Virus record (IMG/VR): IMGVR_UViG_3300023184_000048
Span: 52,742-116,741 of that record
Origin: a virus
DNA: 64,000 bases
Direction: 5' to 3' (one strand)
In this document: positions 805-63,674 of the stretch, one piece after another
Layout: each line of letters starts with the position of its first letter
Position numbering within the stretch: position 1 is the first letter of the stretch
Program-made: the position numbers and the translations under genes
The notes under the pieces: generated by a model
What the model was told of the DNA's origin: nothing
Database searches by the model: none
The model's input: only the letters and a program-made list of their open reading frames with translations

Positions 805-834
805 CTTTATTAAAAACTAGAATATCATCAGGGC

Positions 835-1191
835 ATGGGTAAAATTAAATTCAGAGCTTGGACTGGTGAGAGATTCGTGGATGAAGATTATTTCTATATA
901 AGATATGGAAAGGTTTACACGATTACAGAATTTGATGGACTGGTCGATAAAAAATGGATTCCTCAACAATACACTGGATTAAAAGATCTTAATAAAAAGG
1001 AGATTTATGAGGGTGATGTTTTCGAAGGGTCTACTTATAAATGGGAAGCTGTAGAATTCAAAGATGGTAGGTTCCAAGTCAACCTCATGGGGGCTAGAGT
1101 ATATTCTTTGGAAGAGTTGTGTTGTGATATGGATCATATGCCACCAACAGTGATTGGGAATATTTTCGAAAATCCTGAGCTTCTTAAATAA
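835..1191 (+). CDS. YopX family protein
   Basis: IKFRAW...QYTGLKD.NKKEIYEGD...VIGNIFENPELL signature. Confidence 0.9.
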   Translation: MGKIKFRAWTGERFVDEDYFYIRYGKVYTITEFDGLVDKKWIPQQYTGLKDLNKKEIYEGDVFEGSTYKWEAVEFKDGRFQVNLMGARVYSLEELCCDMDHMPPTVIGNIFENPELLK

Positions 1192-1196
1192 TATAA

Positions 1197-1661
1197 GTGC
1201 TTCCTTTTAACAAAACATTCAATGATCTGATTTTGGAATATGCTCCAACCATGACATTGACAACTGATCAATATTACTCAGAATTGAGTAATTATCTTGG
1301 ACAGTTTGGAATGCATCTTGGTGAGAATAAATTCAATCCTGATTTAGATTATGTGAATCGTAAACAGATGGGAATTTATAAAGGTAAAGATCAAATCGGT
1401 AAAATTGAATTAAGAGTCATCAAAAATGTTTTAGTCCTTGATCATATTAAAAGTTATGGAAATTATTATAAAGAAAAGTTTGGACTGGTTGGAAAGATCT
1501 ACCCATTCCATTATCAGATGGCTCTACTTCACAATCTTACAGTTAAATCGAATGCTGTGAATGATATTACTTATAATGCTTTCCTAAAAACATTTAAAGA
1601 TTTCCAGATTAATAAAAAAGGCGCAAAATTAACAGCAATTCCGATAAACGATGAAATATAA
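1197..1661 (+). CDS. Hypothetical protein
   Basis: GTG start 6 nt after TAAATA. Confidence 0.7.
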   Translation: MLPFNKTFNDLILEYAPTMTLTTDQYYSELSNYLGQFGMHLGENKFNPDLDYVNRKQMGIYKGKDQIGKIELRVIKNVLVLDHIKSYGNYYKEKFGLVGKIYPFHYQMALLHNLTVKSNAVNDITYNAFLKTFKDFQINKKGAKLTAIPINDEI

Positions 1662-1663
1662 AA

Positions 1664-1915
1664 ATGAATGATAAACAAAGAGAGAAGAGACATAAAAAGA
1701 ATCAAAAGTCCAAACTCAAAAAGAAACTATTGAAGGAGATTAGACTTGATAAGTTTATTTTATGTTGTAGGCATAATTTGGTGGAATGGGGTTGCGACTG
1801 CTTCGCTGGGTGTGATTCCTGTGATTATGATAAACAATGTTCAAAGTGTCAAAGTCTTTACAGCCCATCAGATCGGGTAAACTTCTTAAATATTCTTTGT
1901 GATAAACACCATTGA
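1664..1915 (+). CDS. Hypothetical Lys/Cys-rich protein
   Basis: ORF track; basic N-terminus and several CxxC-like pairs. Confidence 0.6.
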   Translation: MNDKQREKRHKKNQKSKLKKKLLKEIRLDKFILCCRHNLVEWGCDCFAGCDSCDYDKQCSKCQSLYSPSDRVNFLNILCDKHH

Positions 1916-2819
1916 AATCCTCAGATCTATCCTTTTTACCAAGGAGGATTTAGCTGATATCACAAATCTTGGTGATACTTTTTCCGATAAAGATATCGAG
2001 TTCATGATCGAGTTCAAAAAGATTTATGAACTTGGTTTGGGGCAACTCAAAAAATTTTTAACAAAGCTTGATGAGGAGGGAAAAGACCTTGATACATATT
2101 CGATTCTTTATTATGTAGATATTCTGAATAATGGCCCTCTTGGATCATATGTAAGAGAATACACCAAAGATAAAAAGTATTTCAATAATACACCAGATAC
2201 TTTGGGGATAAACGGTAACAATAACTATTCTCCAATGAACATAGCAATGATTGGTGATCAATCTTATTCATTAGGATGTCATAATGATACCTATAATAAA
2301 TTGCCTAAATTTATCCAAGATGGGTTGAAAACAGCAGTATCAAAGACTGAAGATTTATTTAGAAGTTGTGTGAAGAGTTCCACAGTGGTAGATAACACTT
2401 TACCACTCGTTGACAAAGATGCACAATCAAGATCTGACCTAGAATCTAAAGGAGAATGGGTGAAAAAATCAATAGGTTCTTATTGTGTAAAAGATTCTTT
2501 TTATTATTTGGCGATTAAGAAGATCAATCAACAGATCTATGATAAGGTCAAAGAAGAATTGGGTGAAGAAGATTTCAGAGTGTTCTCAGATAAGAAAAAA
2601 TACGATCCATTCTCCTCTGAACAAAATGAATCAACATCAACCAATACGAAAATTGAAAAGAATTTTATTGATGGTGAAGACACTCAAAAGATTACTTTAG
2701 ATCTTCTTGGTGATGTATTTGATTCTGAGGAGAAACGTAAGGCAAGTTTGAAAATTTCAAATGTTTCTAAAGACAAGTATTATAAATTGAACTCAAATGA
2801 GGGTGTTCTCGGAGTTTGA
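1899..2819 (+). CDS. Hypothetical protein (possibly virion)
   Basis: 306-aa ORF; GTG 6 nt after TAAATA. Confidence 0.75.
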   Translation: MINTIEILRSILFTKEDLADITNLGDTFSDKDIEFMIEFKKIYELGLGQLKKFLTKLDEEGKDLDTYSILYYVDILNNGPLGSYVREYTKDKKYFNNTPDTLGINGNNNYSPMNIAMIGDQSYSLGCHNDTYNKLPKFIQDGLKTAVSKTEDLFRSCVKSSTVVDNTLPLVDKDAQSRSDLESKGEWVKKSIGSYCVKDSFYYLAIKKINQQIYDKVKEELGEEDFRVFSDKKKYDPFSSEQNESTSTNTKIEKNFIDGEDTQKITLDLLGDVFDSEEKRKASLKISNVSKDKYYKLNSNEGVLGV

Positions 2820-2875
2820 GTTCTTGACATTATTAAAAACTAGTTTATAATTTGTCTTCTTGATAAAATAATACT

Positions 2876-3523
2876 ATGCCATATCTAAATCATAACATTC
2901 CAACAATCACTTGTTTGATGAGAAACCAATTTCTTTTCAATCATGAAAGTGGGTTCGGTGAATATACGCCATGCGATGTTCATAGTGTCGCATCAATCGA
3001 AAAAAGAGTTCCATTATTCGAAGCTTTTTTAACCAATGGGGTCAATTGGACAAGACGACCAATCACAGCATTTTGTTGGAAAGAGTGTGATCCCGTGCCG
3101 TTACATCGTGCCATGTATTGGGATTGCTTTAGTCCATATATCGATGTCCAGATAAGAACAAGATTAAAAGGTCTTAGAGCCAAACTGATTACACCAGATG
3201 GAGATAAAGAATGGGGTGAATATATGTTTACTCTTGATTGGGGTTGGGAGAATAAATCCATTCTTGATACAAATTTTTCTGAAACACCAGAACATAAATG
3301 CGCCCATTTATTTAAAATGGATAATGGAAATTTTTATGCTTATCCCAATAATAGAATTATCTGGCATGATAAAGCGTGGACCGACATCTTACTTGATAAA
3401 AATCCGGGTTACAGAATTGATATGAATGTGTATAGTGTAGAAAACAATTGTTTGCAAAATACCGATTATAGTTATATGACTGAGTTCACCTCTCCAAAAA
3501 ATTTAGAACTTAAACGTCAATAG
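2876..3523 (+). CDS. Conserved phage hypothetical protein
   Basis: MPYLNHNIP..., YWDCFS, YMFTLDW, HKCAH..NG.F.AYPNNRI.W motifs recalled from T4-like marine/freshwater phages. Confidence 0.75.
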   Translation: MPYLNHNIPTITCLMRNQFLFNHESGFGEYTPCDVHSVASIEKRVPLFEAFLTNGVNWTRRPITAFCWKECDPVPLHRAMYWDCFSPYIDVQIRTRLKGLRAKLITPDGDKEWGEYMFTLDWGWENKSILDTNFSETPEHKCAHLFKMDNGNFYAYPNNRIIWHDKAWTDILLDKNPGYRIDMNVYSVENNCLQNTDYSYMTEFTSPKNLELKRQ

Positions 3524-4010
3524 CCGAAATCTTCTCAACTTCTTTTTCATCAACTTTACTTCTCTTAAACATCTCCTTGAGAAGATCTTCTCTGGAAATG
3601 AATAATCCTGACTTATTACCAAGTAATTCATTTTCATTATCAGAAACTTTAGCTTCGATTCTCATTTGCTCGATTTCCTTCTTGGTTTTATTTGAATTAT
3701 CAGCAAGTTGAATCTTGGATAAAGTGTTGACAGCATTGACTAAAGCATTTACGAGAGTTGCAGTTGATTCAACCATTTTAGAATCTCCTCCAGCTTCTAC
3801 ATCAAGTTTCAAAGATTGAACCATATCCACACAATCATGAATAATCGTTGAAGTTTTTTGAATAACGAAATCTTCCAGTTCTTCTCTTTTGAGTTCGGGA
3901 TGATCTTTTTTGACACGATTCAAAGAATTTGATTGATTTTTGATCTGGTTGATGATACTATCAACATCACGGTCGAGTTCATCATCAAAGTCATCTTCAG
4001 CATTATTCAT
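3510..4010 (-). CDS. Terminase small subunit-like (T4 gp16-like) protein
   Basis: Two long helices joined by GGDSKMVE and C-terminal GLFISREDLLK resemble gp16; late-type TAAATA-N5-ATG. Confidence 0.5.
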   Translation of the reverse strand: MNNAEDDFDDELDRDVDSIINQIKNQSNSLNRVKKDHPELKREELEDFVIQKTSTIIHDCVDMVQSLKLDVEAGGDSKMVESTATLVNALVNAVNTLSKIQLADNSNKTKKEIEQMRIEAKVSDNENELLGNKSGLFISREDLLKEMFKRSKVDEKEVEKISAIDV

Positions 4011-4015
4011 AAAAA

Positions 4016-4021
4016 TATTTA
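4016..4021 (-). promoter_or_regulatory. Late-type promoter TAAATA, 5 nt before ATG 4010
   Basis: Minus-strand TAAATA-TTTTT-ATG. Confidence 0.6.
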
Positions 4022-7054: not shown

Positions 7055-7266
7055 TGTTCATCATCCTTTCTAATGATATAACCTTTACTTTTAAGAATAT
7101 CACTTATATTAATCCAAATATCCTCATCTTCTTTAAAATTATTACTAATATAAATAGTTCCATTCTCTAGCTGAGATGCTTCAGGTATCAACCCTTGTTT
7201 GAAATGATTGTAAGCTGTTCTATAAGTTATTCCCTTCTCCTTCGCGTAATCCGATAATTTCATCAT
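7051..7266 (-). CDS. Small HTH protein resembling the IS607 TnpA N-terminal DNA-binding domain
   Basis: MKLSDYAKEKGITYRTAYNHFKQGLIP..QL.NGTI; no serine-recombinase domain follows. Confidence 0.7.
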   Translation of the reverse strand: MMKLSDYAKEKGITYRTAYNHFKQGLIPEASQLENGTIYISNNFKEDEDIWINISDILKSKGYIIRKDDEQ

Positions 7267-7271
7267 ATAAT

Positions 7272-7277
7272 TATTTA
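7272..7277 (-). promoter_or_regulatory. Late-type promoter TAAATA, 5 nt before ATG 7266
   Basis: Minus-strand CTAAATA-ATTAT-ATG. Confidence 0.6.
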
Positions 7278-7805: not shown

Positions 7806-8051
7806 ATGAAAAAGACTTATAGAGGATGTGAAATCTATTCCAACCGCGAAAAGTGCTTAGGTGGATGGTCGCAAGTTTATTGGGGTGCTTTCGATCTAAA
7901 GGATGGGTATCAAATTTCGTGTGATCACACTGAAGGACCAGTGAAAGACGGCGTGTTATATGCTAAGACATCAGTAGATGAATATCTAGATGAATATAAG
8001 TCTGATCAAGATAAACATTCTGATCGTTGGTCATCTCTTTATAAATATTAA
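7806..8051 (+). CDS. Hypothetical protein
   Basis: ORF track. Confidence 0.7.
   Translation: MKKTYRGCEIYSNREKCLGGWSQVYWGAFDLKDGYQISCDHTEGPVKDGVLYAKTSVDEYLDEYKSDQDKHSDRWSSLYKY
8040..8047 (+). promoter_or_regulatory. T4-type late promoter TATAAATA, 5 nt before ATG 8053
   Basis: Exact T4 gp55 consensus. Confidence 0.7.
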
Positions 8052-8052
8052 C

Positions 8053-8802
8053 ATGAATTTTAAAATGTTTTTTGAGAAAAATATTTCTAATCCTCTGAGG
8101 AAACAGCAGATCAAAGATGAAGGTGGTTACGAATTTCCAACTTCAGAAAATAAAAGAACCAAGATTGATGGAAAGTATCGTAAGATATATGAACACCAAG
8201 GAATTCAAGTTTTCTTAGACAGAACAATTACTTCTGATTTCTCACAAAGTTCATATAATATGAGAATGGTGAGATATTCAGTAAATGCTCTTTTAAGAGA
8301 ATTGAGAGGCATCATTCCTAATAAAAAAGGCAGGATAGTAATTACTGATGTGAGTCAAAACCCACTTGTTGGAAATAACATGACTACTGGTAAATCTGGT
8401 GGATTTTATCGTGATCGTATTGTTTATATTGATGAGTTTAGTGTGGATGATCCCAACATTTGGAAACATGAATATGCTCATTATGTTGCTGATTTGATCC
8501 CGAAACAAACTGAGCCGATGTTGTATAAGGCTTATCAAGAATTACTAGATTCTTATTGGAAAAAGGCTAAGAAGAAGAGAAGACCCAATTTAGAACCAGA
8601 AGACCCAAGTTTTGTGGTCAGTGTGATGAAGGCGGAAAATATGAGAAGGAATATTTCTAAGAAATTGGGATTTCCAAGTTACGGATTAATGAACGAACAT
8701 GAATTTTTTGCAGTCCTTATAGAAAACTGGAGTTCTCTTAGAAATGATCGAAACACGTATAAGTTTAAATCATTAGTGAAAGTTGTTCTTGGTAGATTGT
8801 GA
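8053..8802 (+). CDS. Zincin-like metallopeptidase (HEXXH)
   Basis: WKHEYAHY plus downstream YG..NEHEFFA; start moved to ATG 8053 (MNFKMFFE). Confidence 0.7.
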   Translation: MNFKMFFEKNISNPLRKQQIKDEGGYEFPTSENKRTKIDGKYRKIYEHQGIQVFLDRTITSDFSQSSYNMRMVRYSVNALLRELRGIIPNKKGRIVITDVSQNPLVGNNMTTGKSGGFYRDRIVYIDEFSVDDPNIWKHEYAHYVADLIPKQTEPMLYKAYQELLDSYWKKAKKKRRPNLEPEDPSFVVSVMKAENMRRNISKKLGFPSYGLMNEHEFFAVLIENWSSLRNDRNTYKFKSLVKVVLGRL

Positions 8803-8856: not shown

Positions 8857-9051
8857 ATGAATAACGAAAAATACGAGGCAGTGGTTGGGGCATATACTTT
8901 TATGCTTGTGGACGATAATACGATTGAAATCTGGTCTGATGTATCAGCAGCCTATGCTGATTCTTTCATTTATCTAAAGAATGGGGAAATAAAGAATAGA
9001 AAAGATTTTGACATGGAAATTATGTCTTGGTATTCGAGAAACAGTAATTGA
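8857..9051 (+). CDS. Hypothetical protein
   Basis: ORF track. Confidence 0.7.
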   Translation: MNNEKYEAVVGAYTFMLVDDNTIEIWSDVSAAYADSFIYLKNGEIKNRKDFDMEIMSWYSRNSN

Positions 9052-9081
9052 CTTCATTAAAAACTAGGATATAATGTGGGA

Positions 9082-11845: not shown

Positions 11846-11865
11846 AACTACGATACAATCATAAT

Positions 11866-50122: not shown

Positions 50123-50127
50123 TTGAT

Positions 50128-51964: not shown

Positions 51965-51975
51965 TCTTAAAATAC

Positions 51976-52185: not shown

Positions 52186-52206
52186 AAACTAAACTATAAT
52201 ACTCAT

Positions 52207-52647: not shown

Positions 52648-52658
52648 GTAAATGATCT

Positions 52659-52766: not shown

Positions 52767-52795
52767 TTCTTTAAAAACTAAACTACAAAAAGAGT

Positions 52796-52978: not shown

Positions 52979-53025
52979 TTAAAAACTAGGTTAAAATAGT
53001 AACGTAAGCGAAACCACTACTTATT

Positions 53026-54552: not shown

Positions 54553-54576
54553 ATGTTGCATCTGTAATCTGCCGTG

Positions 54577-54582
54577 TAAATA
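54577..54582 (+). promoter_or_regulatory. Late-type promoter TAAATA, 5 nt before ATG 54588
   Basis: GTAAATA-TATAC-ATG. Confidence 0.6.
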
Positions 54583-54587
54583 TATAC

Positions 54588-55403
54588 ATGACAGATAATA
54601 TAAACAATGTCGAGACAGCAATCAAGAATGGTAAGTTCAAAGTAATCTCCAGACCAATAATTCCCATAGAAGATTTAAAGGTTGGAGATTATCTTTCATC
54701 TTATCATTTTGCAGATTCCGCTGTATATGCTAGGATATTGAAATCTATTGATAAGGTTTCCTACTCTGGGAAAGTATTGGTTGTGAGTGTTGATAATAAT
54801 ATTGTCAGACTAACTCCAGATAATGATTGTTTGGTTAGATATAGATGTAGAGAGAATGATCATTGCGTTTATGTAATGAAAAAGGGGAAAGCTTTCAGAG
54901 TTGGTATGAGTAAGATATGGCATGAGGATAATGGATGTGGTCCTTATAAAAGATTGGTTGAAGAGTCTGGTGATGAGTCTTGGATTTTAGGTATATTTCC
55001 ATCAAGAAGACATGCCCTTTTAGAAGAAGCGAAAGTATCAATAAGATTTAGATTACCCCAAACTATGTTTTCCTATAAAGAAGGTCGAGGATCATGGACA
55101 CAAGAAGAATTTGATGATGTTTGGGGTGAAGTTGATAATTATGAAGACGCTAAGAAAGCCTTAGAGTATTACAATAGAGATATTAACTATCCCTATTTTG
55201 ATAGATCTAAATTACACACTTCTATAAAAAGACCTCATGTTGTAAAGGCTTGTAATATTTTAAAAAATTCCGAAATGTTTATCCGCAACAAAAAGTGGAT
55301 GAACATTGATATCTCGGAGGATACTTATGAAGGTGATATCTATAAACTAATTGTTGATAAAGATAACAACTATTTTCTGAACAATATCTTAATTAAAAAC
55401 TAA
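54588..55403 (+). CDS. Free-standing intein-like (Hint) protein with internal GIY-YIG-like endonuclease
   Basis: PIEDLKVGD, YSGK, LTPD (block B, His lost), VYVMKKG..FRVG endonuclease, YEGDIYKL.V....NYFLNNILIKN* (blocks F/G). Confidence 0.7.
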   Translation: MTDNINNVETAIKNGKFKVISRPIIPIEDLKVGDYLSSYHFADSAVYARILKSIDKVSYSGKVLVVSVDNNIVRLTPDNDCLVRYRCRENDHCVYVMKKGKAFRVGMSKIWHEDNGCGPYKRLVEESGDESWILGIFPSRRHALLEEAKVSIRFRLPQTMFSYKEGRGSWTQEEFDDVWGEVDNYEDAKKALEYYNRDINYPYFDRSKLHTSIKRPHVVKACNILKNSEMFIRNKKWMNIDISEDTYEGDIYKLIVDKDNNYFLNNILIKN

Positions 55404-55420
55404 CCTAAAATACTAATATC

Positions 55421-55711
55421 ATGAACTTCATTCGATATGACAAGTATAAACTAGGTAGGTGGAATCATGATCCTAGATATCAAATGAGTATCATCGGAGA
55501 GATTGATGATATGTATATCGTCTGGGATCATGACTTCTGTATCTTTACCACTTGGATGAAGAGGAATGTCACTATCATAGATAACTCTGATGATGTGAAC
55601 TTTCAGAATGCTTATTGCATTTATATCAAAGGTGTTTATCATAGTATTAGAAAATTTGAAGACAAACTAAAAGATGCTGTTGAGAGGGAATTATCATTCA
55701 TTAAAAACTGA
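55421..55711 (+). CDS. Hypothetical protein
   Basis: Cassette-N9-ATG. Confidence 0.75.
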   Translation: MNFIRYDKYKLGRWNHDPRYQMSIIGEIDDMYIVWDHDFCIFTTWMKRNVTIIDNSDDVNFQNAYCIYIKGVYHSIRKFEDKLKDAVERELSFIKN

Positions 55712-55725
55712 AGTAAAATACTTAC

Positions 55726-55905
55726 ATGAAGCGTCAACAAATGATTTCTTATCTTGAAGGTATTATTTATACCGCAAATCTTCTTAAAGAGGATGTCAAT
55801 CTAAAACTTCCTGATAATTATGAGGATGAATTATTATCAGAGTTGGAAAGGATTGAGAATGACTTGGATTCAATTCAGGATTATATCAAAGATCCAATTC
55901 CTTAA
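55726..55905 (+). CDS. Hypothetical small protein (59 aa)
   Basis: Cassette-N6-ATG. Confidence 0.7.
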   Translation: MKRQQMISYLEGIIYTANLLKEDVNLKLPDNYEDELLSELERIENDLDSIQDYIKDPIP

Positions 55906-55918
55906 CAATCAATAACTT

Positions 55919-56068
55919 ATGTCTAAAATCTGTATCAATAATGAAGGTCTTGAAAAGTATTTGACAATCGGTAAGTCTTATACTATCCTAATGAAGTCTG
56001 AGACTCTTTATGAGATCTTAAATGATTTAGGTGTGAGAATGTTCATCGGAACTGAAAGATTTCAATAA
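55919..56068 (+). CDS. Hypothetical small protein (49 aa)
   Basis: CI.N.....YLT.GK.Y pattern. Confidence 0.65.
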   Translation: MSKICINNEGLEKYLTIGKSYTILMKSETLYEILNDLGVRMFIGTERFQ

Positions 56069-56093
56069 TTAAAAACTAGAATAAAATAACAAC

Positions 56094-56693
56094 ATGCAAA
56101 CCGTTAATATCGAAGATCTAAAAAGTAAAATCAATAAAGTTAAACAAACTATTGATGATGTAAAGAATTTTAAGAACATTAAGATTGGTTCTCGTCTAAT
56201 TTGGAAAGATAGTTGGAGTAATTGTGGTGTGGGTGAATATATTTTCACTTTTGTCGGAACCGGATATGTATTGGTAAACCTTGGAGAACATGGGGGTTAT
56301 TGGAGCTTTCCAATTGAGAATCGTGATGATGCCATCACTGGAATTATCAATCTAGAGTATGATGGAACCTTTAGACTTGTTGGTGATCCTCTTATTTCTG
56401 ACCTTGAAAAAGAATTGAAAGATCTTAAGGATCAACTTGAAGAAGCTCTCAATCCTAAAGATCTTAAATGTTCTGATGCTCCTGATGGTTGGTATGTTAT
56501 CAGTGGAAAAACATTTGATGGACTTTGGGCAAATAAGTCGATTCAAAAGGGTGATGTTGTCTTTATCAAAAATGGTATTGTCTTTATGAAAGATCACGGA
56601 AAGTTTTCTGATTCTCATGATCAGAATGAATATTGTATTGAGGGTCTTAGGAAAAGTGCATGGTATGGATATCTCGTTGAGAAACTCCCATGA
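56094..56693 (+). CDS. Hypothetical protein
   Basis: Cassette-N6-ATG. Confidence 0.75.
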   Translation: MQTVNIEDLKSKINKVKQTIDDVKNFKNIKIGSRLIWKDSWSNCGVGEYIFTFVGTGYVLVNLGEHGGYWSFPIENRDDAITGIINLEYDGTFRLVGDPLISDLEKELKDLKDQLEEALNPKDLKCSDAPDGWYVISGKTFDGLWANKSIQKGDVVFIKNGIVFMKDHGKFSDSHDQNEYCIEGLRKSAWYGYLVEKLP

Positions 56694-56863
56694 ATGTCAC
56701 TGAGTTTCAATCACTTAAAGATCTAAGCAATCTTATTCCTTGTAGGAAAGTTGCTTATGATAATTCTGAAGAGTTGAAGGTTTCATTATATGGTGAAAAG
56801 TTTAATGATCTATTAGCTTTCTATAAAGACCAATGGCACTACATCTCAACTATTAAAAACTAA
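56690..56863 (+). CDS. Hypothetical small protein (57 aa)
   Basis: ATGA overlap; ends IKN*. Confidence 0.6.
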   Translation: MNVTEFQSLKDLSNLIPCRKVAYDNSEELKVSLYGEKFNDLLAFYKDQWHYISTIKN

Positions 56864-56877
56864 ACTAAAATATTGAT

Positions 56878-57069
56878 ATGGAAACTCTTGAAGAAAAGTA
56901 TGAGGATTATACGGATGAAGAACTTTGTAAAGAATGGAATCGTCTGGAAACTTTGAAGTTATCCGATTGGGTCGAAACAAAGATGGATTATGTTGAATCA
57001 TTACTTAAGAGTAGAGGTGTGATTGCTTGGAATTATAAGGGTGAAATCACCCAAAGAGACAGAGATTAA
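56878..57069 (+). CDS. Hypothetical protein
   Basis: Cassette-N6-ATG. Confidence 0.75.
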   Translation: METLEEKYEDYTDEELCKEWNRLETLKLSDWVETKMDYVESLLKSRGVIAWNYKGEITQRDRD

Positions 57070-57093
57070 AAACTAGAATATAATACTACTATC

Positions 57094-57291
57094 ATGAAAC
57101 CATTTAATAAAAACGAACTTGAATCTTGTAAGACTATGGGTGATGCGTTTGATTTCTTTCGAAATATCGAAACTTCTGGTATTCAAAACTTTATCAAAGC
57201 CTTGGAAAATGCCAAAGAATATGTTGATATTACAATGAGGGATGAAAGTTTCCTTGGTTATGCTAAAGCTGAACTTCGTTATCGTTTATGA
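57094..57291 (+). CDS. Hypothetical protein
   Basis: Cassette-N9-ATG. Confidence 0.75.
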   Translation: MKPFNKNELESCKTMGDAFDFFRNIETSGIQNFIKALENAKEYVDITMRDESFLGYAKAELRYRL

Positions 57292-57473
57292 AATGTTTTA
57301 TCATTGTAATTTCTCCAACTGTTGATGGTTTGGATGTTCAAGAGTATCATGAACTTGCTACTCGTAAACAATTCAAATCTTATAAAGAAGCTTGGGATTA
57401 TACTTCTTTCTATGCTGAAAGTGTGAGGGATCGGGTGATTATTGTTGAGTGTCACCTTGGTCTTACCTATTAA
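57288..57473 (+). CDS. Hypothetical protein
   Basis: ATGA overlap. Confidence 0.7.
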   Translation: MKCFIIVISPTVDGLDVQEYHELATRKQFKSYKEAWDYTSFYAESVRDRVIIVECHLGLTY

Positions 57474-57497
57474 ATTAAAAATAAACAAAACAAAAAT

Positions 57498-57809
57498 ATG
57501 AAAACTGTTGTAAAAACTCTAGTGCCTTCCGATCAAACTCTTGTTGAAGATGTCAACGAGCGTAAATATTATGGATTTATGCTTGCTCATAGTTCTCCCG
57601 GACTGATTATTAAAGATAATTATCATGGCGAGGCGAAATATATGAGTATGTTTTTCTTTGATATCACAAGAGGTAATAAGTGGGGCAGGTCTTCGACTCT
57701 GAAAGAATGTATCAATCATCTTCTTTCTCATGATAATAAACATAATCCACCACAAGTATTTGAATTTAATACTTATAAAGAATTATTCAAATGGGCTTCA
57801 GAGCAATGA
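57498..57809 (+). CDS. Hypothetical protein
   Basis: ORF track. Confidence 0.7.
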   Translation: MKTVVKTLVPSDQTLVEDVNERKYYGFMLAHSSPGLIIKDNYHGEAKYMSMFFFDITRGNKWGRSSTLKECINHLLSHDNKHNPPQVFEFNTYKELFKWASEQ

Positions 57810-57834
57810 TTAAAAACTAGGTTACAATAATGAC

Positions 57835-58389
57835 ATGATGAAAGAAAAGATCCTTGCTAAAGTCGAAGAAAGTTTTCTTAAAGCCGAAGCTTATTATGGT
57901 CGCACTTTTCCAAGACCTAATGTTATCTTTAAAAGGAATGGAACTTGTGCTGGTTATGCTACAAGAGATTGTAAGACTCTGATGTTTCAACTGGATCTTG
58001 CGGAACATCATGAAGAGGATTTTATCCTTAACACTGTCCCGCATGAAGTTGCTCACAATATCCAATTTCATCTTTATCCTCGGAGTAAGGGTCATGGATA
58101 TGAATGGAAAAGTATCATGACAAGGGTTATGCGTATTCCTGCGGATCGTTGCCATTCTTATGATACAAGTGTTACTAAGACTAAAAAGCAAGGGACTCAT
58201 ACTTATACTTGTGGATGCAATACCATCTTTAATCTGTCAACCACTCTTCATAATAAGATTCTCAAGGGTCAAAATCGTCGGTGTCTGAAGTGTCATAGTC
58301 GTATCTTTCTCAAGTCTGATACTGCTGAAAGTCTCTTGAAACAAATGGAAGAGATTCAAAACAAACTTAACAATAAAAAAGTATCATGA
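57835..58389 (+). CDS. sprT: SprT-like zinc metalloprotease
   Basis: G.CAG.A, TVPHEVAH, GHG.EWK.IM, YTCGC...CLKC. Confidence 0.9.
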   Translation: MMKEKILAKVEESFLKAEAYYGRTFPRPNVIFKRNGTCAGYATRDCKTLMFQLDLAEHHEEDFILNTVPHEVAHNIQFHLYPRSKGHGYEWKSIMTRVMRIPADRCHSYDTSVTKTKKQGTHTYTCGCNTIFNLSTTLHNKILKGQNRRCLKCHSRIFLKSDTAESLLKQMEEIQNKLNNKKVS

Positions 58390-58547
58390 AAACTTGGGTA
58401 AAGGCTGGTAAACATGGTTGGATTGATGTTGATGATACTAAATTCATTGATATTAGCGAAGATATGTATGGGAGGGATGAATATACCTTCGAATACAAAG
58501 GTGAAGAATATACCTCAAATGTTGTGAGTGGCTCTCGACCGGGATAA
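58386..58547 (+). CDS. Hypothetical small protein (53 aa)
   Basis: ATGA overlap. Confidence 0.65.
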   Translation: MKTWVKAGKHGWIDVDDTKFIDISEDMYGRDEYTFEYKGEEYTSNVVSGSRPG

Positions 58548-58577
58548 ATTCATTAAAAACTAAAGTAATATACTCAT

Positions 58578-58985
58578 ATGTTCAAAGCCACACAAAATAA
58601 AGGATTCTGTATTAAATTTGAAAATGGTATAGAAGTATCAATCCAATTTGGAAATGGTAATTATTGCGAAAATCGTTCCAAGGAGAATAATAATGTTATT
58701 ACTTCTTGTGTGAATGCCGAAGTAATGGCTTATGATGAAGATCATAATGTTATTCTTGAACCTCAAGGATGGAAAACTCCTGAAGAAGTATTAGAATTGT
58801 TGAATGATCTTTCATCCCGTATGAGTAAGAAGGAAAAATACCTTAATGAAATTTGGCATAAGGGTTATGATCAAGGTGAGAATGCCAATGATTATAAAGA
58901 TATTATAAATCCTTATAATGAAGAGGATGAAGAACATGGTTCCTTTGCATCTGGTGTATATTCTGGATGGAAGGATAACAATTAA
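58578..58985 (+). CDS. Conserved phage hypothetical protein
   Basis: KGF.I.FENG..VSIQFG.GNYC.N..AEV. Confidence 0.8.
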   Translation: MFKATQNKGFCIKFENGIEVSIQFGNGNYCENRSKENNNVITSCVNAEVMAYDEDHNVILEPQGWKTPEEVLELLNDLSSRMSKKEKYLNEIWHKGYDQGENANDYKDIINPYNEEDEEHGSFASGVYSGWKDNN

Positions 58986-59006
58986 AAACTAAAGTAAAAT
59001 AAACGT

Positions 59007-59333
59007 ATGACAAGTCCTGAAGTTCTGGTAAAGATTAAACTTTCAATCGATGGTATTATTGAAAAAAGATTTAATACTTGTGAAGAGGCATGGGCATGGG
59101 AAAGAGAAATTAAACGTTATCATACTCACAGGAGAAGTATTAAGGATAGACAATTTGTATGGTGGTCATTTTATGTTGGATGCACTTGTCGTGGCAATAC
59201 TTATGGTGGTTATCTTAGAGGAAGTGAATATTCTCGCGGTGCTGAAAGTCTTGAAATGTCCAAAGTATCTGAAAGATACATTGCTAGTAAAAGAAGTAAT
59301 TGGACCTACCCAAGTGAATTGATTAAAAACTAA
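59007..59333 (+). CDS. Hypothetical protein
   Basis: Cassette-N6-ATG. Confidence 0.7.
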   Translation: MTSPEVLVKIKLSIDGIIEKRFNTCEEAWAWEREIKRYHTHRRSIKDRQFVWWSFYVGCTCRGNTYGGYLRGSEYSRGAESLEMSKVSERYIASKRSNWTYPSELIKN

Positions 59334-59347
59334 AGTAAAATAATCTT

Positions 59348-59605
59348 ATGAAAACCACTGAAATGATTCTTCCTACTTGGATGGCTTCAAGTCTTATTAA
59401 TGGAGATATGTCTGGAACCAATGATGAAGAAGCTGATAAAATTGATGATCTTCTTCTTTATGTGAATGAACATAATCTTGGTGAATGTGTGGATGTTTCG
59501 GATGATTCTAGTTTCTATAATCGTCCTCCTATTGATAGTATTTTAGCCTATGGCGAAACATTGGGTGGTGATTATTCGACTTATACTTTTCTCAGCAATG
59601 GTTGA
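59348..59605 (+). CDS. Conserved phage hypothetical protein
   Basis: LP.W.AS.LINGD.SG..DEE. Confidence 0.75.
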   Translation: MKTTEMILPTWMASSLINGDMSGTNDEEADKIDDLLLYVNEHNLGECVDVSDDSSFYNRPPIDSILAYGETLGGDYSTYTFLSNG

Positions 59606-59648
59606 GTTGAATGATTGAATTGATTAAAAACTAAAGTAAAATAAACGT

Positions 59649-59954
59649 ATGACAAAGGATCAACAAAACGCTATCAACTTTAAGAATGAGTGCAATCAAC
59701 TCGGATGGAACTATAATGTTCATGGTTCCATCGTGACTATCACTAAAAGTTTTACTCCCGGTGATAAGAATGGTTTTTGCGACTGTGATGGTGAATACTA
59801 TTCAATTCTTTCTCTTGCACCTTTAAAGGGTGGAAGTATCTGGGGAACTGATGGTGGTGGTATTGGTGGAATGTCTGCACTTAATTCTGGATTCTTTAAG
59901 ATGAATAAGTCCGGTAGTGGTAAAAGATTCCTTAATGAGTTGGCCAAACTCTGA
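59649..59954 (+). CDS. Conserved phage hypothetical protein
   Basis: Cassette-N6-ATG; GSIWGTDGGG.GG. Confidence 0.75.
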   Translation: MTKDQQNAINFKNECNQLGWNYNVHGSIVTITKSFTPGDKNGFCDCDGEYYSILSLAPLKGGSIWGTDGGGIGGMSALNSGFFKMNKSGSGKRFLNELAKL

Positions 59955-59983
59955 TTGATTAAAAACTAAAATATAATAAACGT

Positions 59984-60223
59984 ATGAGCAACAAGAACAT
60001 CGCTAAACTCTGGATCAATCAAACTAAACCCTTTGCCAAAGGTTCAAACTTTTTCTTCGAGGGAACTAAGATTTATTCTTATGGTTATCATTTTCTAATC
60101 GCTGAAATCGTTGGTGATAAAGTTATCTTTAATACTGAAAAGTATTCACAATCAACTTCCAAACATCAAAGTATTGTAAAAATGGCAATCTCTGGAAGTG
60201 GATTGACCTTGGAATATAAGTAA
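59984..60223 (+). CDS. Conserved phage hypothetical protein
   Basis: IYSYG.HF.IA..YS.STSKHQS. Confidence 0.75.
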   Translation: MSNKNIAKLWINQTKPFAKGSNFFFEGTKIYSYGYHFLIAEIVGDKVIFNTEKYSQSTSKHQSIVKMAISGSGLTLEYK

Positions 60224-60284
60224 TAAACCTCAAAAACAAGAGGGAATATTCATTAAAAACTAGGTTAAAATATAAACGTAACCA

Positions 60285-60515
60285 ATGACAAGTAACCTTT
60301 CAAATAAAATCGCCAAAAGTATTAGTAATCTCTCTCCAATGGAAAGGGATAAAATCATCCAAAGCATTCAAAGAATGAATGGAAAGATTACCTATTCCAA
60401 TCAGGATTTTGACAATGAACAATATCTGTCACAAGATTTGTATAAAGCTTGCAAAGACGATCAACCTTTAATGTATGAGGATACCGAACAAAGTATCTAT
60501 GGATTTGCAAAGTAA
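60285..60515 (+). CDS. Hypothetical protein
   Basis: ORF after a cassette. Confidence 0.7.
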   Translation: MTSNLSNKIAKSISNLSPMERDKIIQSIQRMNGKITYSNQDFDNEQYLSQDLYKACKDDQPLMYEDTEQSIYGFAK

Positions 60516-60546
60516 TCTCCATTAAAAACTAAAGTAAAATACTTAC

Positions 60547-60696
60547 ATGAACATCTTCGAAACCTATCTAAAGTTTACTGATCGTAATGGTAATGAGACT
60601 TTTGTTTCAATCTATCAGTATACTCAAGAGCATCAAGATACCTATCAAGATGATATGTCTGAGGTTCTTTTTAACTCTGAATTTGAGCCAATTTGA
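60547..60696 (+). CDS. Hypothetical small protein (49 aa)
   Basis: Cassette-N6-ATG. Confidence 0.65.
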   Translation: MNIFETYLKFTDRNGNETFVSIYQYTQEHQDTYQDDMSEVLFNSEFEPI

Positions 60697-60762
60697 GCAA
60701 TAATCTGCTCAAAATACATAATAATGACCTAAAGTGAGCAACTTTCTGCTCAAAATAATAAT
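60693..60762. repeat. Two dyads TGAGCA-N6-TGCTCA-AAATA, 41 nt apart
   Basis: 60694-60711 and 60735-60752. Confidence 0.75.
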
Positions 60763-60863
60763 GTGTAAAGTTCATGAAACCCTTATAAAACAAGGAAAGT
60801 AATGATAGAGATAAGGGAATAGCAAGAAAGATACATTAAAAACTAGATTAGAATATACTTACG

Positions 60864-61406
60864 ATGAAACCAATTACAAATTTGTTGAATGAAGTTGAAT
60901 TTAATAAACTTACACGTAATCAAAAACGTGTAAAGATTGCAGAAGATGTGATTTTTCGTATCTTTGCTGAAAATCTTATCGAAAGTAATGGTAGTATTCT
61001 TGGAGGTAATATTAAAGAAATTGTCGAGGAAGTTCCTCTGAAAGAAGCTATTAATAATACTTCATGTGAAGTATGTGCAAGAGGTGCAATTATGTGTTCT
61101 TGGATTGGTAATTTTAATAAAGTTACTTGGAATGATATTGATCCTTTATATCGTAGAATGATTGATTATAGTTCCAAAGGTTTCCCCCCACAATTACTCG
61201 AAGTATTTGATCAGGAAATGCTTGACAATATTGAAGCAGCATTTGAGCATTCTACTTTCGAATGGCATTATGATCACAATGAAACACAAAAGTATGTGGA
61301 TGCTTTTGAAAGATATGATGATGAAGAGGATGAATACATTGGAACTCCCATTGTTTTACTCATGGAATGGATCATCAAGAACAATGGTGATTTTCCCCTC
61401 CCATAA
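60864..61406 (+). CDS. Hypothetical protein
   Basis: Cassette-N9-ATG; C.VCA.GA motif. Confidence 0.75.
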   Translation: MKPITNLLNEVEFNKLTRNQKRVKIAEDVIFRIFAENLIESNGSILGGNIKEIVEEVPLKEAINNTSCEVCARGAIMCSWIGNFNKVTWNDIDPLYRRMIDYSSKGFPPQLLEVFDQEMLDNIEAAFEHSTFEWHYDHNETQKYVDAFERYDDEEDEYIGTPIVLLMEWIIKNNGDFPLP

Positions 61407-61440
61407 CAATCATTAAAAACTAGGTTAAAATATTACTATC

Positions 61441-61572
61441 ATGAAAACAAACGGATTCACACTATTGGAATTGATTCTTGGAATCTTTATTGGTTTGGTC
61501 GGAATTACAGTTATCTTGTATGTCATTACATGGATCATAGTTCTTTATCACTTCATTACCAAATTCTGGTGA
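61441..61572 (+). CDS. 43-aa prepilin-like peptide (class III signal, GFTLLEL)
   Basis: MKTNG|FTLLELILGIFIGLVGITVILYVITWIIVLYHFITKFW; cassette-N9-ATG. Confidence 0.75.
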   Translation: MKTNGFTLLELILGIFIGLVGITVILYVITWIIVLYHFITKFW

Positions 61573-61603
61573 TCATTAAAAACTAGGTTAAAATACTACT
61601 ATC

Positions 61604-61810
61604 ATGAAGCTCAAACAATACATCGGTAATACAATCTACATCGTCAATGATAACTATTTTGCTGATGGATTCTTTGGAAAACTTGATATCATTCAAAGTA
61701 GATCGGGAGAGTTCTATAATTATCTTGTCAATGGTGTTCAATTCTTTGATAGTGATATTATCAATATTGACAACGAATGTGTTGGTGATATACTTGTGAC
61801 TCTGAAGTAA
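61604..61810 (+). CDS. Hypothetical protein
   Basis: Cassette-N9-ATG. Confidence 0.75.
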   Translation: MKLKQYIGNTIYIVNDNYFADGFFGKLDIIQSRSGEFYNYLVNGVQFFDSDIINIDNECVGDILVTLK

Positions 61811-61820
61811 TACTTATAAA

Positions 61821-61897
61821 GGACATGTAGCTCAGTCGGATAGAGCAAAAATTTTCTAAATTTTAGGTCATTGGTTCGATCCCAATCATGTCCACCA
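61821..61897 (+). tRNA. tRNA-Arg(UCU)
   Basis: GGACATG/CATGTCC acceptor, GCTC/GAGC D stem, AAAAT-TTTCTAA-ATTTT anticodon arm, ATTGG-TTCGATC-CCAAT, encoded CCA. Confidence 0.92.
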
Positions 61898-61937
61898 ATT
61901 TTCAAATCATTAAAAACTAGATTAAAATACTACTATC

Positions 61938-62558
61938 ATGAATATCGAAACTAATAACTCTTGTAACTCTTGTAACTCTTGTAACTCTTGTAACTATTGT
62001 GACTATTGTGACTCTTGTGACTCTTGTAACTATTGTGACTATTGTGACTCTTGTTACTATTGTTACTCTTGTGACTCTTGTGACTCTTGTAACTCTTGTA
62101 ACTCTTGTAACTCTTGTAACTCTTGTGACTCTTGTAACTATTGTGACTCTTGTGACTCTTGTGACTCTTGTTACCCTTGTTACTATTCAAAAAATCTTAA
62201 AATGACTGAATACAACACATTTTGTTGGTCTGAACAATACAATGATGATAAGTCATTCCAACAAAAACGTTATCGTATCTTTAATAAAGAGTATTCAAAA
62301 TCTGCATACGTAAAAATTACATCAAAGATTGAATCCATTATTCCTAATCCCAATAAACTGAAGTTATCAGAGTTTTGGAAAAAGATCACTCAGGATCAAA
62401 TCAAATCTATCATGAATATTGAAGATCTTGAATTTGATGTGGAAGGTTTTGAATATATCACTGGAATCAAGGTTCAAAAAGAACTTAGTGAAGTTGAAAA
62501 AGCTATTCAACTTTTGACCGAAAAAGGATTACTGAAGGATGGAAAGGTTCTCTTATAA
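61938..62558 (+). CDS. Cys-rich tripeptide-repeat protein
   Basis: 25 x-x-C units, then YRIFNK-type domain seen in phage repeat proteins. Confidence 0.8.
   Translation: MNIETNNSCNSCNSCNSCNYCDYCDSCDSCNYCDYCDSCYYCYSCDSCDSCNSCNSCNSCNSCDSCNYCDSCDSCDSCYPCYYSKNLKMTEYNTFCWSEQYNDDKSFQQKRYRIFNKEYSKSAYVKITSKIESIIPNPNKLKLSEFWKKITQDQIKSIMNIEDLEFDVEGFEYITGIKVQKELSEVEKAIQLLTEKGLLKDGKVLL
61956..62180 (+). repeat. 25 x 9-bp tandem repeat (AAC/GAC/TAC)(TCT/TAT)TGT
   Basis: Direct reading of the sequence. Confidence 0.95.
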
Positions 62559-62571
62559 ATTATAATACTCC

Positions 62572-62671
62572 CATTCTCAATAAGGATTAATTATTGATTG
62601 TTAACCCTAGAGCAAAACAACTTTATTTGTTGTAGGTATAAGGAATGATATAAATGTCCTTATTGAGAATG
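62572..62671 (+). ncRNA. Candidate small RNA: perfect 15-bp terminal stem enclosing hairpins
   Basis: CATTCTCAATAAGGA/TCCTTATTGAGAATG; ACAAC-N7-GTTGT; TATAAT at 62561-62566 places the start at the stem. Confidence 0.6.
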
Positions 62672-62704
62672 ATTGATTAAAAACTAGATTAAAATACTCA
62701 TATC

Positions 62705-62872
62705 ATGAACGGTTACAAAGCATTTTACAAAGGAAAGTCAATCGAAATTTATGCCAATACTTCTTATGGGGCGCAACAATTAGCAGCAAAACAATTCAAG
62801 GCTAAAAAGTCTTACGATGTGACAGTCGTTCTTTGTGAGAAAGGAGAAGAGCAAGTGTTTCATACTGCCTGA
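62705..62872 (+). CDS. Conserved small phage protein (55 aa)
   Basis: MNGY.AFYKGK..E.YA.TSY.AQ..AA..FK.KK. Confidence 0.75.
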   Translation: MNGYKAFYKGKSIEIYANTSYGAQQLAAKQFKAKKSYDVTVVLCEKGEEQVFHTA

Positions 62873-62883
62873 TTGAATAACTT

Positions 62884-62951
62884 TCAGATTAAGGACATTT
62901 CATCTTGACATTACCACTGAGATATGTTAATATTGAATGTCCTTAATCTGA
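62884..62951 (+). promoter_or_regulatory. Canonical sigma70 promoter (TTGACA-N17-TAATAT) enclosed by a perfect 16-bp inverted repeat
   Basis: TCAGATTAAGGACATT (62884-62899)/AATGTCCTTAATCTGA (62936-62951); -35 at 62905, -10 at 62928. Confidence 0.7.
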
Positions 62952-63017
62952 CTAATCGGGGAGAAGGATAATGATATTTATTTAATCAATCAGTTATGAT
63001 TTAAAACATAAACTAAT

Positions 63018-63092
63018 TGTCCCGTAGCTGAGAGGTTTTAGCACTTTCTTTATAAGGGAGAGACGTGGTTTCGATTACCACCGGGACTACCA
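63018..63092 (+). tRNA. tRNA-Ile(UAU), with non-canonical U1-U72 and U53-A61
   Basis: GTCCCG/CGGGAC, GCTG/TAGC, CTTTC-TTTATAA-GGGAG, GTGGT-TTCGATT-ACCAC, encoded CCA. Confidence 0.8.
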
Positions 63093-63129
63093 TTTTATTC
63101 ATTAAAAACTAGATTAGAATACACTTACA

Positions 63130-63300
63130 ATGAACTACAAAATTACAAATATTGATTGGGATACTGATGGAAACGTGGAAGATTTCAATTCACTTCCACA
63201 AGAAGTTATTGTAAGTGTTGCTGATGAGGATGATATTGCTGATGCACTTTCTGATGCTTATGGATGGTGTGTCAAGTCTTTTGAATCCACCCCAGCCTAA
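63130..63300 (+). CDS. Conserved small acidic phage protein (56 aa)
   Basis: YKITNI.WDTDG...LP..V...D.IAD.LSD.YGWCV.SF. Confidence 0.75.
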   Translation: MNYKITNIDWDTDGNVEDFNSLPQEVIVSVADEDDIADALSDAYGWCVKSFESTPA

Positions 63301-63325
63301 TTAAAAACTAGATTAGAATAAGCGT

Positions 63326-63532
63326 ATGAAAGATCCTATTGAAGCTATTCGATTCGCTGGTTTTAGTCTTAAATTTGCTGAAGAAGTATTGATCAAAGCT
63401 CAAAATAAGGCCAATGAATCAGGCGAGAATGTTTACATCTGTCTTGATTACAGGAGTATCTATTATGTTTATCATTCCTTTCTCACAATGTCTGATGATG
63501 TAATCACCCACGTTGAACCAATTAAAAACTAG
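63326..63532 (+). CDS. Hypothetical protein
   Basis: Cassette-N6-ATG; ends IKN*. Confidence 0.75.
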   Translation: MKDPIEAIRFAGFSLKFAEEVLIKAQNKANESGENVYICLDYRSIYYVYHSFLTMSDDVITHVEPIKN

Positions 63533-63546
63533 ATTAGAATACTTTC

Positions 63547-63635
63547 GAGATTACCACTCCCCCGAAAGGAGAAGGAAAGAACATGTCACTGCAATAATAC
63601 TGCAAACCCTCACACCTGAATTGACAGGAAATCTC
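63547..63635 (+). ncRNA. Cassette-driven candidate small RNA (89 nt)
   Basis: Begins exactly 6 nt after the -10; GAGATT/AATCTC closing stem; CTCC/GGAG, TGCA/TGCA and CCTG/CAGG hairpins. Confidence 0.6.
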
Positions 63636-63674
63636 AATCATCTTCATTAAAAACTAACTTAGAATACTACTATC

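Follow-up and report, generated by a model that had tools for sequence, protein, structure and literature searches.

The 64,000-nt stretch analysed here (the window) forms the last 64 kb, positions 52,742 to 116,741, of the 116,741-bp viral contig IMGVR_UViG_3300023184_000048 (GC content 33.5%), and it carries a short repeat, hereafter called the cassette, 71 times on one strand, usually at a fixed distance of 6 nt from an ATG. We consider it likely that an uncultured T4-type myovirus uses these repeats as its early-class promoters, each a compact stop-promoter-start unit of ~34 bp, and that the mRNAs they produce are mostly leaderless. The repeat, its geometry, its pattern of conservation and its presence throughout a clade of related phages are read directly from the sequence.

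The exact pattern TTAAAAACTRNNNTANAAT matches the window 63 times, always on the + strand, and not once in 100 shuffles. A wider pattern, [AT]TTAAAAACT-N4-[TC]A-N3-[TA], finds 71 copies, with none on the minus strand and none expected by chance, to which one variant copy (CAATAAAACT) at 11840 on the + strand can be added. The first 52.7 kb of the contig hold no cassette except one degenerate copy near genome position 12825. With spacing defined as the distance from the hexamer TAnAAT to the first ATG that opens an open reading frame (ORF) of at least 30 codons, 6 nt separate the two in 53 copies (54 including the variant), 7 nt in two, 8 nt in one and 9 nt in ten, and longer distances are found at 60252 (13 nt), at 37506 ahead of rIIB (21 nt), at 2832 (24 nt) and at 52978 ahead of a UvrD-like helicase gene (28 nt). 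Thus 56 of the 72 copies lie 6-7 nt from their ATG, as in -10-adjacent ORFs, and all cassette genes open with ATG. Copy density climbs rightward: the first 8 kb of the window have three copies and the final 8 kb have 20, with 22 lying between 55392 and 63646. These results bear out the original prediction, which had been made from the window's letters and which had listed 71 copies, all on the + strand (recovered by the pattern scan, plus the variant), spacing counts of 53 at 6 nt, 10 at 9 nt and 3 at 7-8 nt (reproduced exactly), five copies with a -35 box at a 16-bp spacer and a rightward rise in density; its longer leaders at rIIB, the helicase and 60285 (the cassette at 60252) were seen again, and the copy at 2832 has a long leader as well. 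The array comprises the following features; in the 6-nt copies, 20 nt run from the start of the cassette through the end of the hexamer, and the ATG begins 7 nt past that end.

809..63665, + strand: main array of 71 early-class cassettes and one variant, conserved from about -30 to +4.
+ strand: the 53 cassettes at 6 nt, starting at 809, 7316, 9056, 13156, 14684, 15474, 16149, 17331, 18573, 19979, 21219, 22498, 23150, 23908, 24989, 28236, 29879, 30629, 30865, 32580, 33778, 35818, 36058, 38646, 39670, 39949, 40970, 42410, 42870, 43314, 43762, 44036, 45404, 45903, 47553, 48407, 48635, 49359, 49812, 50519, 52181, 52770, 55700, 56068, 56852, 57809, 58552, 58981, 59322, 59623, 59958, 60521 and 63300.
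27073..63665, + strand: ten cassettes at 9 nt (predicted 3-nt leader), starting at 27073, 55392, 57065, 60835, 61412, 61575, 61909, 62676, 63101 and 63646.
41208..51770, + strand: three cassettes at 7-8 nt, starting at 41208 and 47280 (7 nt) and 51751 (8 nt).
33778..33806, + strand: cassette abutting rIIA (gene 33804-35726, ATG at 33804).
37506..37549, + strand: cassette with a 21-nt A/C-rich leader ahead of rIIB (phrog_609, E = 5.6e-54).
52978..53028, + strand: cassette with a 28-nt leader ahead of the UvrD-like helicase gene.
60252..60287, + strand: cassette with a 13-nt leader.
63521..63645, + strand: cassette followed by ~105 nt devoid of an ORF of at least 30 codons, the only such copy.
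26952..26971, + strand: degenerate cassette-like remnant (TCTAAAAACTAGATCAAAAT) with no ATG.

Aligned as a sequence logo and numbered from the predicted start site, the 71 copies show a single conserved block from about -30 to +4. Its upstream part is ATTAAAAACTA (-26 to -16) with R/A at -15/-14; the hexamer comes next, followed by A at -6 and a pyrimidine at -1, and then by the ATG with A at +4. Within the hexamer, T-12 is present in 69 of 71 copies, A-11 in all 71 and T-7 in 70, while position -10 is variable; because of this distribution the hexamer is read as a -10 element rather than as an RNA signal, and by its conservation it behaves as a true -10. The hexamer has the sigma-70-type form TAnnnT, but the array as a whole has neither a -35 at 17 +/- 1 bp nor an extended -10: positions -36 to -31 are unconserved across the 71 copies, and the same logo shows no TG at -15/-14. 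Five copies nonetheless carry TTGAC[AT] exactly 16 bp upstream of the hexamer, against ~0.04 in-register copies expected by chance according to our own arithmetic, leaving 66 of 71 with no -35. The five are as follows.

801..828, + strand: cassette with -35 TTGACT and a 16-bp spacer, driving a YopX-domain gene (835-1191).
2824..2875, + strand: cassette with -35 TTGACA, its ATG at 2876 lying behind a 24-nt leader (ORF 2876-3523, in phrog_3704, annotated as ferredoxin).
9048..9075, + strand: cassette with -35 TTGACT.
11832..11859, + strand: the variant cassette (CAATAAAACT) with -35 TTGACA, 6 nt from the ATG at 11866.
17323..17350, + strand: cassette with -35 TTGACT, driving an Rnl2-type RNA ligase gene (17357-18391).

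Upstream of rIIA, distant relatives have TTGACA-N17-TATAnT followed after 7-10 nt by the ATG. The conservation of the -10, the in-register -35 of a few copies and these canonical promoters at the same place in relatives all suggest, in keeping with the original prediction, that the repeats are promoters, and their geometry agrees with a +1 on the A of the ATG. Indeed, a pyrimidine occupies -1 in 68 of 71 copies and an A occupies +1 in 65 of 71. In the 9-nt class, the sixth base after the hexamer is T and the seventh is A in ten of ten copies; since this T-A pair stays in place although the ATG lies 3 nt further on, the start-site context appears to be conserved separately from the ATG, and the predicted RNA of this class would begin AUC, ACA or ACG before reaching the AUG.

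No SD-like (Shine-Dalgarno-like) purine run lies between cassette and ATG. The cassette contains stop codons in all three frames, and therefore no ORF can begin further upstream; the stop codon of the upstream gene falls inside the cassette in 34 of 71 cases, and in 12 more a TGA sits at -2. For rIIA, the N-terminus predicted from the cassette ATG aligns with 27 homologues, among which M1 is nearly invariant. The public gene call (P0001, 625 aa) starts 15 codons inside this frame, whereas the homologues support the 640-aa form. Many other starts in these SD-less genomes have probably been misplaced by automatic callers too.

The few long leaders (37526-37546, 52998-53025 and 60272-60284) begin alike, with an A/C-rich sequence resembling AACG(A/T)AA(G)C, and the long leaders of relatives are likewise A/C-rich. 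The copy at 63521 had been proposed to precede an RNA, which is left unproven: the stretch 63541-63645, which contains one of the genome's very few GGAG strings and a 4-codon mini-ORF, has no Rfam match and folds at the level of shuffled sequence (z = 0.2). The Bacteroidetes-type promoter motif TAnnTTTG has 101 matches on the + strand and 88 on the minus strand, mostly within genes, and thus carries no signal.

Conservation was followed with an rIIA profile (alignment A1), which retrieved 80 related loci from viral contigs, 21 of them, at roughly 30-40% rIIA identity, serving for a cassette survey. These 21 loci contain 205 cassettes, all on the gene strand and none opposite. The spacing holds in the relatives as well, at 6 nt in 118 of 205 and 6-7 nt in 125 of 205, and the seventh base past the hexamer is A in 177 of 205. 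In place of the ATTAAAAACTA seen here, individual lineages uniformly use their own variant of the element, namely AATAAAAAACTA, ATAAAACACTA, ATTAAACACTA, ATTAAAACCGA, ATTAAAACCA or AATAAAACGTTA. The relative G001, complete at 202 kb and bearing terminal repeats, contains 61 early cassettes; 35 show the 6-nt spacing, and 57 of the 61 lie on one strand between 136 and 193 kb. Compared across these genomes, the cassette pattern is clade-wide and genome-scale. Scans with the exact motif were uninformative, yielding single, chance-like matches in viral contigs (8 loci) and in metagenome contigs (at least 120 loci). Some loci (L089, L033, L030, L076 and L048) contain repeated 9-mers unrelated to the cassette, such as CAGGTGTGG, with 66 copies in L089, and GAATACGAT, with 20 in L033.

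A second putative promoter class is placed in the same manner. TAAATA, the box of T4 late promoters, is present 104 times in the contig; 30 of these boxes have an ATG 5-6 nt downstream, as against 0-4 at other distances. Such boxes precede structural genes on both strands, and G001 has 74 TAAATA-N5/6-ATG junctions. Homologues of the late sigma factor gp55 are encoded by relatives (phrog_234, E = 3.6e-26); none was found in the contig itself, which is 57% complete. The following late boxes lie in the window.

4008..4021, minus strand: TAAATA, 5 nt to the ATG at 4010.
7264..7277, minus strand: TAAATA, 5 nt to the ATG at 7266.
8042..8055, + strand: TAAATA, 5 nt to an in-frame ATG at 8053 (the longest ORF of this frame starts at 7990).
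26908..26921, minus strand: TAAATA, 5 nt to the ATG at 26910 (270-aa ORF; gene 26098-26921).
33743..33756, minus strand: TAAATA, 5 nt to the ATG of a GIY-YIG endonuclease gene (32711-33756, Pfam match).
54577..54590, + strand: TAAATA, 5 nt to the ATG at 54588.

The minus-strand genes 32711-33756 and 26098-26921 are embedded in the + strand early array, each with its own late box. That two unrelated promoter classes should both be fused to the ATG is hard to explain, judging from the genomes compared, except by selection for very short or absent leaders. The claim that the pattern operates on a genome scale thus stands, as it is conserved in the clade and is displayed by late genes too.

Taken together, these features outline a mechanism in which host RNA polymerase with a sigma-70-family factor would read TAnAAT as the -10, and the adjoining element of 11-13 bp (ATTAAAAACTA, -26 to -14) would presumably compensate for the absent -35. 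Transcription would start 7 nt past the hexamer, at an A following a pyrimidine; this would be the A of the ATG in 54 copies, giving a leaderless mRNA, with a leader of 1-3 nt in 13 more. The cassette would also end the upstream gene and make up the whole intergenic region. Transcripts would be nested, reading through into later modules, and the genes that have no cassette, most of which overlap or abut the prior stop, would presumably rely for their translation on coupling or else on internal initiation at A-rich leaders, independent of an SD. Lastly, the cassette units probably double as recombination points. The geometry matches one validated experimentally in Deinococcus, where a TANNNT motif 6-7 bp before an ORF gives rise to a leaderless mRNA, with the -10 alone sufficing and a -35 at 17 bp boosting expression (PMC12340547). 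Leaderless initiation depends on a 5′ AUG and zero leader, dropping ~2-fold with each added nucleotide (PMC8459731), rules that would account for selection on an exact spacing and for the exclusive use of ATG.

Several points weigh against this interpretation. Promoter activity, start site and leaderless translation are all deduced from sequence alone, in this phage as in its relatives. If the host is Flavobacterium-like, both recognition by the host polymerase and efficient leaderless translation are uncertain, because the cassettes depart from the near-invariant T-8, T-6 and G-5 of F. johnsoniae promoters (this species being an assumed host type only) and because 87% of F. johnsoniae mRNAs have a leader longer than 10 nt. 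Cassette genes and internal genes cannot be told apart by low structure over their first 40 nt: the 5′ ends do show reduced structure relative to random windows, yet internal genes have the same, and low 5′ structure was therefore discarded as a marker of leaderless genes. With no terminators, read-through would enclose every cassette gene in longer RNAs as well; in these the A/U-rich cassette could serve as an ordinary SD-less leader, and the leaderless form need not be the main translated form. Finally, the fixed spacing could in part be inherited through the copying of whole units rather than selected.

The arrangement of genes does not fit the single-gene modules of the original prediction. 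Simple gene calls give a single gene in only 26 of the 63 modules and leave 72 + strand genes of the window with no cassette of their own. Among these internal genes, 45 start between -20 and +5 nt relative to the preceding stop, often with an ATGA overlap, which suggests translational coupling. Terminators are not in excess (5 terminator-like sites against 6.8 expected), and therefore nested, polycistronic read-through RNAs are expected. Nor is there a stem-loop at the cassettes, the upstream 50 nt folding at a mean of -5.7 kcal/mol against -5.4 kcal/mol for random windows (p = 0.98). The SD sequence, whose absence in front of cassette genes had been taken as a feature of the array, is indeed not visible there, but it is essentially absent from the whole 117-kb contig, cassette genes being nothing special in this respect. 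Non-cassette genes have A-rich leaders with an A at -3 in 59%, and A-rich, SD-less leaders with A at -3 have been described for Flavobacterium (PMC6847099). The further proposal that leaderless expression bypasses or survives a shut-off of SD initiation thus found no support: with essentially no SD genome-wide and a host that probably does not depend on it, a canonical SD route to be bypassed is not to be expected, and half of the early genes must be initiated internally anyway.

The contig comes from what is, by its gene content, an uncultured, deeply branching T4-type myovirus, and the window appears to be its early region. It derives from JGI/IMG metagenomes, and its proteins are named in no source. 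Its completeness is 57% (CheckV), and its start falls inside a gp41-like helicase gene. Besides genes for a gp32-like single-stranded DNA-binding protein and a primase, it carries structural and packaging genes for terminase, tail sheath, baseplate wedge and tape-measure proteins, and the window itself contains rIIA, rIIB, Rnl1- and Rnl2-type RNA ligases, the UvrD-like helicase and GIY-YIG endonucleases. The terminase is only ~35% identical to that of the nearest named phages, which are T4-like cyanophages. Genomes of the relatives measure ~200 kb. Megablast of 20 kb against phage records returned no close DNA relative, and a single-protein rIIA search of viral contigs gave no match; the closest rIIA relative (P0002), at 69% identity, is carried on a 216-kb contig. 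Two tRNA genes, tRNA-Arg(TCT) at 61821-61897 and tRNA-Ile(TAT) at 63018-63092, lie within cassette-driven modules, each behind a small ORF. Outside the window, at L001:4365-4440 (contig coordinates), the gp32-like gene has a long, G-poor, A/C-rich leader of ~70 nt with a hairpin, preceded by a TAACTTTG box similar to the Bacteroidetes -7 element; the gene could have a host-type promoter and an autoregulatory leader.

Binning into metagenome-assembled genomes (MAGs), together with the SD-less A-rich leaders, points weakly to a host among the Bacteroidota. Of 16 related contigs found in MAGs, seven are in bins with Bacteroidota-type names, counting Ignavibacteria and Kapaibacteria. The best full-length rIIA relative is in a Flavobacterium sp. 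MAG and has the same kind of cassette. Further contigs of that MAG are similar to the window (G006:C86:4394-4980, L244: 69% identity over 587 nt), and a large part of a related phage genome probably ended up in the bin. A host link through CRISPR (clustered regularly interspaced short palindromic repeat) spacers was sought with the first 20 kb of the window; the short matches obtained in three flavobacterial MAGs and 401 genomes of the family lie outside repeat arrays and were attributed to chance.

What acts at the -26 to -14 element has three possible answers, the first two of which we regard as tentative and about equally probable. The first refines the preferred reading: a phage-encoded, possibly virion-delivered activator or sigma-like factor may bind the element and steer host RNA polymerase, by analogy with MotA/AsiA. 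This would fit the many copies devoid of a -35 and of a TG extended -10, the use of an ordinary TTGACA -35 by more distant relatives and, should the host be flavobacterial, the lack of the three near-invariant host promoter bases. Moreover, one uniform element variant per lineage (ATTAAAAACTA-AATAAAACGTTA) is expected of co-evolution with a specificity factor, and such lineage-specific variants favour a co-evolving protein. The search for one was negative, however. The contig has no Sigma70_r2, bS21 or MotA_activ match, and the same is true of MotA_activ in four relatives that are essentially complete (100% in three, 96% in one), whose genomes also encode no sigma-like protein besides gp55, which was the sole match of the Sigma70_r2 search in each; bS21 had no match in relatives either. 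The genes behind the five -35-bearing promoters encode no DNA-binding domain or transcription factor by Pfam and PHROG scans. In addition, the earliest genes must be read before any phage protein exists, unless the factor is injected with the DNA. The phage activator or sigma factor that the original prediction had invoked for -26 to -16 may exist, lineage variants being consistent with it, but the idea is weakened: complete relatives showed no MotA, second sigma or T7-type RNA polymerase (the last in a search with no positive control).

The second answer is that the element is intrinsic and is read by host RNA polymerase itself, through an AT-rich or A-tract spacer contact that replaces the -35, its uniformity arising from selection for strength and from copying. 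Core polymerase is known to contact spacer elements (the 'Z element'), and early promoters of T4 and T5 have a long conserved consensus. In F. johnsoniae, AT-rich motifs at -18 and -28 outweigh any -33 motif, and a Deinococcus -10 beside an ORF functions with no -35; the negative search for a phage factor and the identical cassettes on unrelated genes, indicative of copied units, would be in line with this answer as well. But the C-18/T-17 core and the changes between lineages (ACT, CACT, CCGA, CGTT) look base-specific rather than like a general AT-rich effect, and related phages with presumably related hosts would not need differing elements.

If the promoters needed only their -10, the element might instead be an operator, at which a single phage repressor, bound between the -35 and -10 positions of each early promoter, shuts the class off later. 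Protein bound at this site would obstruct polymerase, the five copies with a good -35 have the element too, and it varies by lineage. Yet the strength of the 66 promoters with no -35 would be left unexplained, and Pfam and PHROG scans of the genes under -35-bearing promoters revealed no repressor candidate; we regard the operator as unlikely.

Two further alternatives concern the leaderless start itself and the meaning of the 6-nt spacing. Transcription could begin further upstream, with ATTAAAAAC as a -10-like box for a gp55-type factor and TAnAAT-N6 as a fixed 5′ untranslated region of ~16 nt with a role in translation, in which case the mRNAs would have leaders. TTAAAAA does resemble TTAAATA, much as ATTAAAAAC is like the late box TAAATA; a translation signal would likewise keep a fixed distance to the ATG, and the host uses SD-less, A-rich leaders. 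What makes this improbable is that the -35, in five copies and in distant relatives, is phased to TAnAAT rather than to the element, that the hexamer follows the -10 rule (T-12, A-11 and T-7 fixed, -10 free), that the 72 cassette-less + strand genes do not have the hexamer at -12 to -7 and still need translating, and that the Y(-1)/A(+1) pair is retained in the 9-nt class despite the moved ATG.

Alternatively, cassettes might be mainly recombination or mobility units whose 6-nt spacing was copied, with no consequence for expression. The cassette-driven ORFs are non-paralogous, yet several have identical cassette-to-ATG strings. Between loci L028 and L037, a 2.9-kb block flanked by two cassettes is present in the former and absent from the latter, and of 120 homology blocks 24 have their start at a cassette, where 4.8 would be expected, an excess that was measured between pairs of relatives, not in this phage, and that is partly trivial given the coincidence with gene starts. 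Some indel and block boundaries fall at cassettes, but discriminator sequences vary widely while their length stays at 6 nt, and the spacing is kept in lineages with diverged cassettes as well as for the unrelated late boxes, which renders copying with no expression role very improbable. Least credible of all is that the 20-bp unit serves as the promoter of a phage-encoded T7-type single-subunit RNA polymerase, as might be thought of a contiguous conserved block of ~20 bp ending just before the start site: PF00940 had no match in the contig or in the four essentially complete relatives (control genomes were matchless too, leaving the sensitivity of this search unproven), the genome is T4-type, with gp55, and some copies have an in-register -35.

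Combining the preferred reading with the indications on host and factor leads to a broader picture, which we offer as a conjecture that is doubtful as a whole: a T4-type clade with ~200-kb genomes, probably living in SD-independent Bacteroidota, would make more than 100 leaderless mRNAs per genome from two promoter classes, the early class ignoring the -35 and needing a phage-borne factor that co-evolves with the -26 to -14 element, and the leaderless 5′ AUG would be a phage-specific channel to the ribosome in hosts with leadered mRNAs. Should the leaderless programme be real, a deep branch of the T4 group, with both its early and its late promoters fused to the start codon, would show that leaderless or coupled initiation can sustain almost the entire programme of a large virulent phage. 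The clade would also supply hundreds of natural promoter-AUG junctions for studies of start-site choice and leaderless translation, and its lineage-specific -26 to -14 elements would be a handle on a new kind of -35-less promoter recognition.

Among known systems, the closest in genomic setting are the PeSL (promoter-early stem-loop) mobile cassettes of the T4-type phages RB49 and phi1 (PMC2839356). In both, a plastic region of a T4-type genome has its small early genes flanked by repeated copies of a single early promoter; at the PeSL units gene content changes between relatives, as it may at the cassettes in the pairs of relatives compared. The cassettes of the window differ in having no stem-loop and no SD, in being fused to the ATG and in mostly doing without a -35. 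The middle promoters of T4, where MotA takes part in sigma appropriation, similarly combine a sigma-70 -10 with a phage-specific upstream element that replaces the -35. In the present array, however, the element lies at -26 to -14 rather than at -30 and is unrelated in sequence to the MotA box, and the T4 middle genes have SD-containing leaders; PF09114 (MotA) had no match in the contig or in five relatives, AsiA not having been searched. As for T4 late promoters (TATAAATA, read by gp55, gp33 and the clamp), they share the TAAATA box on late genes and, in relatives, gp55 homologues, but the box here stands 5-6 nt before the ATG, such that late mRNAs would be leaderless, whereas T4 late genes have SD leaders. 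T4-type phages are, after all, the textbook case of SD-led, leadered early, middle and late mRNAs. Full-text literature searches found no published description of leaderless cassettes in T4-type phages.

Outside the T4 group, the Thermus phages phiYS40 and P23-45 reportedly produce leaderless middle and late transcripts from -35-less promoters for a large share of their genes; their hosts are said to use leaderless mRNAs heavily, and neither phage is reportedly T4-type. The leaderless, -10-adjacent architecture itself is known from Deinococcus-Thermus and also from Actinobacteria (PMC12340547, PMC3160421). With the Deinococcus type, the cassettes have in common a TANNNT 6-7 bp before the start, no SD, an optional -35 (at ~17 bp) and an mRNA that begins, here by prediction, with the AUG. 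They differ in belonging to a phage and not a cell, in comprising an early and a T4-type late class, in the added lineage-specific element at -26 to -14, and in a host that is probably SD-independent and, on weak indications, from a phylum in which leaderless mRNAs are rare. As far as the genomes compared here can tell, what would be new in this phage clade is the combination of this known leaderless, -10-adjacent architecture with T4-type early-promoter cassettes, in an unusually systematic form.

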